Both the position numbers and the translations under genes were made by a program. Below, piece by piece: positions 58,586 to 63,892 of a stretch of 64,000 nucleotides of DNA (position 1 is its first letter; each line of letters starts with the position of its first letter). This stretch comes from Pirellulales bacterium (GTDB taxonomy: Bacteria > Planctomycetota > Planctomycetia > Pirellulales > PALSA-1355). Under the pieces are notes generated by a model. That model was not told where the DNA came from and did no database searches. It saw only the letters and a list, made by a program, of their open reading frames with translations. The DNA is taken from assembly GCA_040877415.1 (NCBI GenBank), contig JBBDNV010000128.1, forward strand, positions 14,953 through 78,952. Reading direction: 5' to 3'.

Positions 58586-58891
58586 ATGACCCACGGCCAA
58601 CCTCAACGGATCGGCGACGTGCTCGCGCAACTGCTGGCCCGCCGGGGCTATGCCCGCGTGCGATCGGGTGGCGCCTGCGCGGAGGCGTGGCGCCAGGCGG
58701 CGGGCGAGCGGCGGGCTTCGTCCACGCGGGCCACGGGGGTTCGCCGCGGCGTGCTGGAAGTGCTGGTCGAGAATTCGACGTTGGTCCAGGAAATGAATTT
58801 TGAAAAGAGAGCGTTGATCAGCCGGCTGGCGGAACTGCTGCCGGATGAGAACATACGCGACGTGAGGTTTCGCGTTGGCCCTGTGACGTGA
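58586..58891 (+). CDS. dciA: DUF721 / DciA-like protein (helicase-loading factor family)
   Basis: The roughly 100-aa ORF lies between dnaN and gyrB. The C-terminal motif IRDVRFRVGP and the GVLEVLVENSTLVQEMNF pattern are DUF721-typical. Confidence 0.65.
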   Translation: MTHGQPQRIGDVLAQLLARRGYARVRSGGACAEAWRQAAGERRASSTRATGVRRGVLEVLVENSTLVQEMNFEKRALISRLAELLPDENIRDVRFRVGPVT

Positions 58892-58978: not shown

Positions 58979-61552
<2,574 letters not shown>

Positions 61553-61662
61553 GCGCGCGCCGGCCGGCTCGCGATTTCGTCGCGGTGGTTTGCGCATTGC
61601 GAATCGTCCGGTATCATGCAGGGCAACGGACGCCCTCCCTTGAGAAACCGGAGTTCTCCCGC

Positions 61663-63510
61663 ATGACCACTAAGAACCCCGCCCAAACGGCCAATACGAT
61701 TCTCTGCGGCGACTGCATCGAGGGCATGAACGGGCTGGCCGCCGGCGGCGTCGATCTGGCGTTTGCCGATCCGCCGTTCAATATCGGATACGACTACGAT
61801 GTCTACGACGATCGGCAAGAGCGCGACAAATACCTGGCCTGGTCGCGCGATTGGATTGCGGCCGTTTACCGGGTGCTCAAGCCCGATGGGGCGTTCTGGC
61901 TGGCCATCGGCGACGAATACGCGGCCGAGCTGAAAATCGAGAGTCAGAAAATCGGCTTTCACTGCCGCAGTTGGGTCGTCTGGTACTACACGTTCGGCGT
62001 CAACTGCGACAGGAAGTTCACCCGCTCCCACGCCCACCTGTTCCACTTCGTCAAGAACCCGAAAGAATTCACCTTTCGGGCCGACGCCCTGGAAAACCGC
62101 ATCCCGTCGGCGCGGCAACTGGTCTACAACGACAAGCGCGCCAATTCCACCGGGCGGCTGCCCGACGACACGTGGATCATTCGCCCCGCGGAATTCGCCG
62201 GGCTGGTGGACGACGACGGCGCCTGGCCGCCGGCGAAACTGCCGGCGCCGGCGGATCAAGACCAATCCTGGACGCTGCGGCCGCAAGATCTCGGCGAATG
62301 TTTTGGGCCGGCCGAAAACACCTGGTACTTTCCCCGCGTGGCCGGCACGTTCAAGGAACGGGCCGGCTTTCATGGCTGCCAGATGCCCGAGCAGCTATTG
62401 GCGCGAATCATTCGCGCGTGCTCCGAGGAAGGGGAGCTCGTGCTGGACCCGTTTTCCGGCAGTGCCACGACCGCGGCGGTCGCCAAGAAGCTCGGCCGGC
62501 GCTACCTGGCGTTCGACGTTTCGGCCGATTATGTAAAGCTGGGGCTGGCGCGCCTCGAGCGCACGCGCGTCGGCGATCGATTGGACGGGTCGGCCGAACC
62601 GCTTATGTCAGCTCCCAGAACGGACAAGCCGCGATCGCGTTCCCGATCCGTCAAAGGCGCGCGAAAATCGACCGCGATTGCAGTTCAACCGGACTATCGA
62701 CAAACCGAAGAGTGTTACGACCTGGTTCAACTTGAGATGACGCTGCGCGGCATCGTCGAGGCGTTTCGCCTCGTGCACGACGGGTTTTCGGCCGATCGCG
62801 TGGTGACGGATCCGAGCCTCGACAACCGCTTCGTGGAACAATGCCGAAAGTTGGGCCTGATGGGCGACGCCCGCACCTGGAACATCCTCTTGTTTCGGCT
62901 GCGAAAAGCCGGCAAGCTCGCGCACCTGCCGACCCGGGAGCGAACCGCAATCTCCTGGGAAGCGTGCGACGACTATTTCTTTGCCAGTGAGATCGCGCTT
63001 GAGCTCGTGCTCGCTTCGGGCAAGGCCGAGAGCCTCGACGAGATTCTGTGCGATCCCGACCTGGCCGGCGAGTTCGACAAGCTGGCCGCCGATTTCGCGC
63101 CGGGGCGGCAGTCGTTCGAGTACCGCTGGGCGGCGCTGAAGCTTCGCAAGCAGGCGAAAATTGCGCGCAGCCGCGGCGCCGTGCTGGTGCCGCCCGCGCG
63201 CTTGAGCCGCGAAACGCCTGTTGATCAGCTCGACGTGCGCGGGATTCCGCCGCGGCCGGGAGTCTATTTGCTCAGTGGAAACAAGTCGCAAAAGCTGTAC
63301 GCGGGCGAGGCGCTGAATCTGCGGAGCCGGCTGGAAACGCAGTTTGAATCCGGCCGGCGCGTAGTTTTGGGCCGTTTCCCCGGGCCGCTCTCCTTGCGGA
63401 CCTTCCTGACGCACACGCTACCTGCCGAAATGCTTGCGTGGCAGAGTTGTCTGGTGCGAAAATACAAGCCTCGGCTTAACTATCGGGAGCTGCGCGCGGT
63501 AGGGTCCTGA
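61663..63510 (+). CDS. Beta-class DNA methyltransferase (N6-adenine or N4-cytosine) fused to a C-terminal GIY-YIG (UvrC-like) nuclease domain
   Basis: Motif IV is [12 protein letters not shown]. It precedes motif [16 protein letters not shown], which is the beta-class order. The C-terminus [30 protein letters not shown]...[11 protein letters not shown] matches the UvrC/I-TevI GIY-YIG consensus. The single in-frame ORF of 616 aa is embedded in the artefactual 1405-aa track ORF 59293..63510. Confidence 0.75.
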
Positions 63511-63544: not shown

Positions 63545-63892
63545 TCAAAGAATCCTGGCTTGACAATGGGGGCAGGAAGCAGCGTCGTCCCGGATTCGCA
63601 TGCGACGTGGCTTGAAGTTCCCTGAGCCGCATTTCCATAGACTGCCTCGGCAGTGTGGGCACGTGACCATGCTTCTGCACAGCACCGAGGTCGCGGCCCA
63701 ACAGACCAATCCAGGCACGCCCAAGAATAGGATGAGTGCGAGCCAGGATTGTTGGAACCTTGCCGGAAGGGCGACGAGCAGGAACAGCGCGGCCGGTACG
63801 CCGAAGAGTAGCGTTATAGCAGATCGCGCTTGGGCGGCTCTCAACAGTGCCTTGTGGAGTGCCATCCGGCTGATTGTGCGATCATCTCCCAT
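63545..63892 (-). CDS. Small membrane protein with a C-terminal zinc-ribbon (CPHC...CPHC)
   Basis: Two TM helices are followed by TCPHCRGSLWKCG...SCPHCQARIL. It is convergent with the MTase gene. Confidence 0.4.
   Translation of the reverse strand: MGDDRTISRMALHKALLRAAQARSAITLLFGVPAALFLLVALPARFQQSWLALILFLGVPGLVCWAATSVLCRSMVTCPHCRGSLWKCGSGNFKPRRMRIRDDAASCPHCQARIL

Follow-up and report, generated by a model that had tools for sequence, protein, structure and literature searches.

A beta-class DNA methyltransferase gene of a Pirellulales bacterium with a GIY-YIG-type C-terminal module lacking the catalytic glutamate

Genes and features of the locus

The window, which here means the whole 64-kb stretch of DNA that was analyzed, contains downstream of gyrB a complete coding sequence for a DNA methyltransferase (MTase) with a long C-terminal extension. 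The genes, domains and residues referred to in this work are the following:

59018..61552, + strand: gyrB, given as context only and outside the system (Pfam DNA_gyraseB, Toprim and HATPase_c)
61663..63510, + strand: complete CDS of 615 aa plus stop, comprising MTase domain, linker, helical domain and a GIY-YIG domain without the catalytic Glu
61684..62577, + strand: beta-class amino-MTase domain, probably N6-adenine, aa 8-305 (Pfam PF01555)
61768..61779, + strand: motif IV, DPPF, aa 36-39 (read directly from the sequence)
62080..62373, + strand: inter-motif region, aa 140-237, at the usual position of the target-recognition domain (TRD) in the beta class (conserved blocks)
62446..62472, + strand: motif I, the AdoMet-binding loop DPFSGSATT, aa 262-270 (aligns to the motif of CcrM and M.RsrI)
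62578..62697, + strand: basic, variable and flexible linker, aa 306-345 (AF2 and alignment columns)
62698..63198, + strand: all-helical domain with a tandem repeat of ~45 aa, aa 346-512 (AF2 and hhalign)
62788-62919 and 63031-63162, + strand: the tandem ~45-aa repeat units of the helical domain (hhalign)
63244..63492, + strand: GIY-YIG fold without the catalytic Glu, aa 528-610 (Y535, Y546, G548, R556 and N606 retained)
63340..63342, + strand: codon CAG for Gln560 at the R+4 position, which is His in the standalone paralogue (alignment)
63442..63444, + strand: codon CAG for Gln594, in place of the metal-anchoring Glu (alignment to 1ycz and 1yd6)

A preliminary description of this DNA had reported a single polypeptide with an MTase, a middle region and a GIY-YIG domain, encoded immediately downstream of gyrB. 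Both points were confirmed, as the product is encoded by one open reading frame that starts 110 bp past the end of gyrB, in the cluster dnaA-dnaN-dciA-gyrB. A database protein annotated as 'DNA methyltransferase [Pirellulales bacterium]' is 100% identical to this product. On the 3' side only a convergent ORF of 114 aa without family match was found. An ORF of 1405 aa in the same frame was dismissed as a gene, being a high-GC read-through over gyrB in an alternative frame, and a promoter and terminator scan around the MTase gene returned nothing that exceeded the shuffled expectation.

The methyltransferase domain

Pfam N6_N4_Mtase (PF01555) covers aa 30-293 in the N-terminal domain, with a score of 166.1 bits that lies well above the cut-off of 26.7 (E = 1.5e-48). 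Motifs IV and I are both intact, and their order, DPPF followed by DPFSGSATT, is that of the beta class; together with the Pfam match, this upholds the earlier assignment, which had been made from DPPF preceding FxGxG. In 42 homologues D36, P37 and P38 of motif IV show no variation, F39 is kept in at least 90%, and in the AdoMet-binding loop D262, P263, F264, G266, S267 and T270 are invariant among homologues. PDB matches of the domain were CcrM (6pbd), M.RsrI and M.MboIIA, and the MTase core was modeled with confidence by AF2. The best NCBIfam matches, PRK11524 (165 vs 292 bits) and CcrM NF050803 (117.3 vs 830 bits), both lie under the equivalog cut-off, and PADLOC returned generic Type II and orphan MTase models and sub-threshold matches of PDC-S14/UzuA to the GIY motif, nothing else. 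By its motifs and family matches the gene product is a beta-class DNA methyltransferase, most likely of the N6-adenine type.

The inter-motif region contains nearly invariant blocks, such as [24 protein letters not shown] and [21 protein letters not shown], which are retained in MTase-only homologues from viral contigs. Despite this near-invariance, the region has low pLDDT values in the DNA-free full-length AF2 model.

The linker and the helical domain

The linker is disordered in the full-length AF2 model at aa 312-341 (pLDDT <50) and shows no column conservation. The helical domain that follows has pLDDT values >95, and a model of aa 334-615 reached a pLDDT of 94 and a pTM of 0.89. In a profile comparison with hhalign the two repeats matched each other with E = 1.1e-5, and no significant relative of the domain was found in PDB or Pfam. 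The middle region had earlier been called uncharacterised, which holds for the ~220 aa after the MTase domain, as they have no family match. It had also been suggested to be a target-recognition domain. This is still plausible. However, the helical domain is shared with a standalone nuclease paralogue (36-42% identity, see below) and is part of that lineage rather than of the MTase, and highly conserved sequence already fills the usual TRD position (aa 140-237).

[quoted passage not shown]

Over their full length the C-terminal ~85 aa can be aligned with the N-terminal domains of UvrC proteins, and they have the alpha/beta GIY-YIG fold. The agreement with the GIY-YIG consensus, described earlier as almost residue for residue, turned out to be far looser: the identity to UvrC is 24%, Gln594 occupies the place of the catalytic Glu, and Pfam PF01541 scores 14.0 bits with the whole protein and 16.9 bits with the C-terminal fragment, below the gathering threshold of 22.6. 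A UvrC or Cho excinuclease was rejected as identity of the protein, as only model positions ~5-90 align (18.8 vs 285 bits) and the GIY-YIG domain lies at the extreme C-terminus; UvrB-binding, EndoV-like and HhH domains do not follow it.

HMMER aligned E76 of UvrC, equivalent to E142 of Eco29kI and E149 of Hpy188I, to Gln594. In the structure of Hpy188I this helix Glu anchors the single catalytic metal (PMC3045582). Among 120 close homologues of the fused protein, 112 have Gln and three have Glu at position 594, and no Glu was observed in the 81 species representatives, where Gln was found in 70, Lys in five, Arg in two, Leu in two, and Ala, His and Trp in one each. An exhaustive library search gave the same picture, with Glu in none of the 25 MTase-containing representatives and with all 11 Glu forms lacking an MTase. 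The other signature residues are well kept in the 120 homologues (Y535 in 117, Y546 in 119, R556 in 114 and N606 in 119), and Gly548 is also conserved in at least 95% of them. Checking the catalytic Arg, Glu and Asn by alignment, as the preliminary description had proposed, thus gave a divided answer, with R556 and N606 present and the Glu replaced. The replacement is accompanied by further changes relative to the active paralogue described below. Gln is found at the R+4 His position as well (Q560, in 77 of the 120 fused homologues), Cys at the position of a second Glu (E239 of the paralogue), and the HSDN block is absent.

The preliminary description had offered, among its candidates, a fused Type II restriction-modification (R-M) enzyme or a methyl-directed nicking or repair enzyme, that is, a single chain with an active GIY-YIG nuclease. 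Such a reading can draw on the fold, on the conservation of four of the five signature residues and on the purifying selection that acts on the domain. The conserved E549, or E609 in close homologues, could in principle also provide a carboxylate. As a substitute metal ligand E549 was nevertheless rejected, as it is equally invariant in the Glu-containing paralogue (E185) and is thus not compensatory, and E609 was rejected because it varies in distant members. By sequence comparison, the chain does not hold a competent nuclease domain of the kind found in Type IIC/IIG-like enzymes. Since the Glu is absent from all 81 species representatives, with Lys, Arg or Leu sometimes in its place, and since three further features that are invariant in the active paralogue (the His at R+4, the second Glu and the HSDN block) are lost, it is unlikely that the protein is a fused Type II R-M enzyme or that it acts in nicking or repair. 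The separate canonical nuclease encoded at ~20% of the loci would moreover be redundant were the fused domain able to cut. Taken together, we regard an active single-chain nuclease as very improbable. The fused protein is almost certainly a methylase only, from which nuclease activity would not be expected. Residual or partner-dependent catalysis by the fused copy may occur, because Gln can weakly ligate metal and the dimeric GIY-YIG restriction enzyme Hpy188I has its Glu supplied in trans (PMC3045582).

A standalone nuclease paralogue in relatives of the locus

Relatives of the fusion were identified in at least 594 species-level genomes of Planctomycetota, and the locus counts given here cover the best 80 of these relatives. 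In 16 of the 80 loci, about one fifth, a gene of ~252 aa abuts or overlaps the stop codon of the fused gene, often by an ATGA overlap, and in the remaining 64 the MTase gene stands alone. The ~252-aa protein is paralogous to the C-terminal half of the fused protein, with the helical domain followed by GIY-YIG (36-42% identity, E down to 5e-42). At 34.6 bits its GIY-YIG domain scores above the Pfam threshold, and it has a complete active site, with Tyr172 present in 116 of 117 sequences and Tyr182, Arg192, His196, Glu237, Glu239 and Asn249 each in all 117. This form adjoins the fused MTase in all 16 nuclease-bearing loci, and in three of three long contigs it lies directly 3' of the fused MTase gene with a 4-bp overlap. 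A third gene of ~119 aa, without family match but with a conserved PSCFC tail, is present in 10 of the 16 nuclease loci and was never seen without the nuclease.

The nuclease of this three-gene cassette is linked to an MTase at each locus inspected while the MTase is also found alone, which is the linkage of a Type II R-M system; this applies to the relatives and not to the window. Among distant relatives of the Glu type, which carry other N-terminal domains such as DUF6575, two cases were found in which a D12-class (Dam-class) adenine MTase gene follows immediately, which is the arrangement of a classic R-M gene pair. These observations suggest an R-M character for the standalone nuclease lineage. 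In the window, neither the nuclease paralogue nor the third gene was found, and a tblastn search of the 64 kb with 14 standalone nucleases matched only the fused gene. Within the window the MTase is thus solitary, with no adjacent nuclease gene; the part of the genome beyond the visible 64 kb may still encode a standalone nuclease.

In a neighbor-joining tree the standalone copies form one clade (100 of 100 bootstraps), and each shares 30-37% identity with its own fused neighbor. One clade combined with this low identity fits one ancient duplication. Repeated local duplication as the source of the standalone nuclease is ruled out by the same monophyly. Between fused and standalone proteins the helical domains share ~33% identity, so that the two may read different sequences.

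Distribution, selection and inheritance

MTase/GIY-YIG fusions had been considered unusual in the preliminary description, which does not agree with their occurrence in at least 594 species-level genomes of one phylum. Seventy-nine of the best 80 relatives are labeled Planctomycetota (Planctomycetia, Sedimentisphaerales and Kuenenia) and one only 'bacterium', and the fusion is spread over three classes of the phylum. All of these 80 encode one uninterrupted ORF from the MTase through the C-terminus. A frameshift or stop separating the domains in relatives, which the preliminary description had named as the way in which the fusion might prove spurious, was thus found in none of them.

Purifying selection acts strongly on each of the three domains, also at loci that lack an adjacent nuclease gene. 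In close pairs from partner-less lineages the median omega (dN/dS) was lowest in the helical domain (0.037), followed by the MTase (0.055) and the GIY-YIG domain (0.075). Given the low omega of a GIY-YIG domain without Glu, this dead domain is functional rather than decaying.

If the domain is maintained for a function other than cleavage, one candidate is protein-protein contact. The C-terminal half would then mainly pair with the active nuclease, yielding a controlled enzyme, a nickase or a site-restricted enzyme, and would mediate self-association of the MTase where the MTase is solitary. CcrM acts as a dimer, which is in line with such a role. The module is also paralogous to the adjoining, translationally coupled nuclease, and some GIY-YIG restriction enzymes are dimeric with active-site residues provided in trans (Hpy188I, PMC3045582). 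However, the constraint is equally strong in lineages without an adjacent nuclease, and the best-conserved residues of the GIY-YIG domain are the DNA-phosphate contacts (Tyr, Tyr and Arg), with no obvious interface. In some lineages Lys or Arg has taken the place of the metal-anchoring Glu, which likewise fits phosphate binding. We therefore consider a mainly protein-protein module unlikely, though it deserves to be kept in mind.

The sequence clusters of the fused gene disagree with taxonomy, and cassette-bearing and solitary loci are interleaved. One MAG carries two copies of the fused gene that are 55% identical. Paralogy or transfer of the fused gene within the phylum is likely, and a strictly vertical 'housekeeping' inheritance is not supported by the clusters or by the two-copy MAG. 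In addition, complete MTase-only homologues of 254-345 aa were identified on seven IMG/VR viral contigs. They share 50-60% identity with the fused protein and end after the MTase domain, which suggests that the MTase domain can stand alone. No nuclease gene was found on these seven contigs, and the ±5 kb around the MTase-only genes gave no independent confirmation of their phage nature.

Position relative to the replication genes

The gene had previously been placed at the origin of replication and proposed as a candidate CcrM-like cell-cycle methylase. Support for the origin is given by gene order alone: DnaA boxes were at chance level (four found vs 3.7 expected), and no GC-skew switch was seen in the window. 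Across the 80 loci no conserved flanking gene was identified besides the cassette genes, and only two of the 80 have gyrB upstream in the same orientation. The idea of an origin-tied methylase has thereby lost its main support, and the proximity to dnaA in the window is incidental.

More generally, the protein might be a housekeeping, CcrM- or Dam-like regulator of the cell cycle, or an epigenetic regulator coupled to replication, for which the position in the dnaA-dnaN-dciA-gyrB cluster would be meaningful. The wide distribution of the gene over three classes of the phylum, the near-invariant blocks in its recognition region, the strong purifying selection, and the location within a replication-gene cluster in the window are all consistent with such a regulator. 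This has to be set against the rarity of the gyrB adjacency and the missing origin signals, and also against an inheritance that, judged by the clusters and the two-copy MAG, is not simply vertical. The nuclease gene found next to it in some relatives and the MTase-only homologues from viral contigs point instead to an R-M history, and we find a housekeeping regulator of this kind improbable.

Interpretation and significance

The explanation we favor, with moderate confidence, is that the gene encodes a solitary beta-class MTase which has kept a catalytically disabled, ancient paralogue of a restriction-type nuclease as a DNA-docking module. The Tyr, Tyr, Arg and Asn retained in the dead copy are phosphate-contacting residues, and the title of PDB entry 3mx4 describes an inactive E142Q variant of R.Eco29kI bound to DNA. 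The dead nuclease module would still bind DNA and act as a docking or reader module, and the flexible linker of ~35 aa would hold the MTase domain at or near sites recognized by the nuclease lineage. Where the active nuclease is present, methylation would in this way take priority over cleavage. Where it is absent, as here, the protein would be a methylase only, with a built-in DNA anchor whose role may be functionally comparable to that of the C-terminal DNA-binding domain of CcrM. The locus in the window would either have lost the nuclease and the third gene or never have had either.

A bolder version is possible, and we put it forward tentatively. Here the family would represent a new R-M architecture native to Planctomycetota, in which an MTase with a dead paralogue of its own nuclease, sharing the helical reader domain but with a neutralized metal site in the GIY-YIG domain, serves as a non-cutting 'site guard' that occupies the targets of the nuclease and methylates them, and the third protein with the PSCFC tail completes the system. 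The nuclease would have been lost in most lineages with the guard-MTase retained by strong selection as an epigenetic enzyme, and phages would counter the system with MTase-only copies. As to the target site, an inference based on palindrome avoidance gave no motif that tracks the presence of the cassette. The methylome of Kuenenia MBR1 contains six m6A motifs without enzyme assignment, and the orphan MTase M.PspCM1200mP2I from Planctomycetaceae has the target CAAAT.

If the favored explanation is true, a natural nuclease has been turned into a DNA-binding pseudoenzyme by the same Glu-to-Gln change as in the engineered, inactive R.Eco29kI whose crystal structure contains DNA (3mx4). This pseudoenzyme would have been recruited by the MTase that once protected against it, a new coupling of the modification and restriction arms of R-M systems, and a path would be outlined by which R-M methylases become permanent epigenetic enzymes throughout a phylum. 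There is also a blind spot in annotation, with hundreds of fused proteins labeled merely 'DNA methyltransferase'; the GIY-YIG part goes unannotated because the domain scores under the Pfam threshold. For the window itself the gene is to be read as a putative methylase and not as a nuclease, and its interest lies at the level of the family.

Comparison with known systems

In the searchable literature we found no description of an MTase that carries a dead paralogue of its own nuclease partner. The MTase domain has the same catalytic class and motif order, with DPPx before the AdoMet loop, as CcrM from Caulobacter (6pbd), M.RsrI, M.MboIIA and YhdJ/PRK11524 from E. coli. CcrM is also similar in having an extra C-terminal region past the catalytic domain, and, again like CcrM, the fused protein has no adjacent nuclease in most genomes. 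The extension described here is, however, ~300 aa long and nuclease-derived, whereas the ~80-aa domain of CcrM is unrelated.

A combination of amino-MTase and GIY-YIG in one polypeptide is known from Lactobacillales, where a fusion of a COG4123 N-MTase with an Slx1-like GIY-YIG domain was inferred to have arisen from an MTase-nuclease operon (Dunin-Horkawicz et al. 2006, PMC1564403). That fusion differs in its MTase (COG4123, with NPPY), in its GIY-YIG domain, which is Slx1-like and not UvrC-like, and in that the domains are adjacent without a helical domain in between; loss of the catalytic Glu is not described in PMC1564403. Type IIG/IIC enzymes also have nuclease-type and MTase domains on one chain. 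In those of the MmeI family the N-terminal part is an active PD-ExK nuclease, and the MTase is of the gamma class and comes with a TRD (PMC2731913, PMC4752239), whereas the fused protein has its nuclease-type domain at the C-terminus, with the GIY-YIG fold and without the catalytic Glu. The cassette of the relatives resembles DnmA-YeeB-YeeC and OspHL35III in being a multi-gene system with a GIY-YIG nuclease downstream of the MTase (PMC4752239, PMC9973331). In those systems the MTase is MmeI-like and accompanied by a helicase/translocase, unlike the beta-class MTase without translocase observed here; their MTase carries no pseudo-nuclease, and the third gene is a different one.

The standalone paralogue, with its full set of Tyr, Tyr, Arg, His, Glu and Asn and its linkage to an MTase, is most similar in kind to R.Eco29kI and R.Hpy188I. 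The known GIY-YIG Type II restriction enzymes are nevertheless separate proteins with unrelated MTases and without the helical tandem-repeat domain, and in no reported case does their MTase carry a dead copy of the nuclease. The fused copy in turn naturally has the same Glu-to-Gln change that was engineered in the E142Q variant of Eco29kI (3mx4).

Gene start and neighborhood in the window

The start of the fused methyltransferase (MTase) gene was placed at the ATG at 61663, in agreement with the N-termini of its homologs. A 1405-aa open reading frame (59293-63510, + strand), in which the MTase frame runs back through gyrB, was rejected as a longer gene and is an alternative-frame artefact of high GC content. 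dnaN and gyrB are separated by a small gene that encodes a homolog of the DciA-family helicase loader (PF05258, E = 1.4e-15), and the order of the cluster is therefore dnaA-dnaN-dciA-gyrB, without recF. As listed, the DnaA reading frame is short (362 aa). Downstream lies a convergent 115-aa reading frame in which the motif CPHC occurs twice, together with a hydrophobic segment; its product is possibly a membrane-anchored zinc-ribbon protein and had no match in Pfam.

58586-58891, +, DciA-family helicase-loader homolog
63545-63892, -, convergent 115-aa reading frame

The palindrome CAGCTG is strongly depleted in the window (1-64000), with 6 counts over both strands (3 sites) where a Markov model predicts 52 (O/E 0.11, z = -6.4). 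This depletion suggests restriction pressure, past or present, at a PvuII-type site, with no tie to the fused MTase gene established.

Genes associated with the fused MTase in related loci

In about one-fifth of the related loci, the fused MTase is translationally coupled to a standalone nuclease of ~252 aa, composed of a helical domain and a canonical GIY-YIG domain and labeled in databases merely as "GIY-YIG nuclease family protein". This gene is absent from the window. A third gene (~119 aa), with conserved ELMLRYWxHP and WYAEW motifs and a PSCFC tail, is restricted to loci with the standalone nuclease (10 of 10) and gave zero matches in Pfam, NCBIfam, and PHROGs.

Cassette genes in related loci (L-numbers)
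L015:9809-10564, standalone nuclease
L017:9818-10573, standalone nuclease
L081:6001-6759, standalone nuclease
L082:6001-6756, standalone nuclease
L083:6001-6759, standalone nuclease
L017:10587-10943, third gene
L034:10543-10890, third gene
L064:7118-7474, third gene
L081:6770-7129, third gene

Overall, sequence clusters of the fused-MTase family do not mirror taxonomy. Two copies with 55% identity to each other (L036 and L079) occur in a single MAG, Planctomyces sp. isolate GFS_4656, one being solitary and the other part of a three-gene cassette.

MTase-only homologs and divergent nucleases

On IMG/VR viral contigs, we identified MTase-only homologs (254-345 aa, 50-60% identity) ending directly past the MTase domain. 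These could be phage counter-restriction methylases; their flanking regions gave no confirmation that the contigs are of phage origin.

MTase-only homologs on IMG/VR contigs
L084:4902-5939
L085:5004-5789
L086:5031-5828
L087:5004-5837
L088:882-1646
L089:1862-2626
L090:4887-5735

Divergent, Glu-type relatives of the standalone nuclease (364-401 aa) are followed immediately by a gene for a D12-class (Dam-like) adenine MTase, as observed in L092 (nuclease 654-1859, MTase 1895-2692) and for the relative P0237 on an 11.6-kb JGI contig. One such relative carries an N-terminal DUF6575 domain, and one is adjoined by DnaB-helicase and EndoU-like genes.
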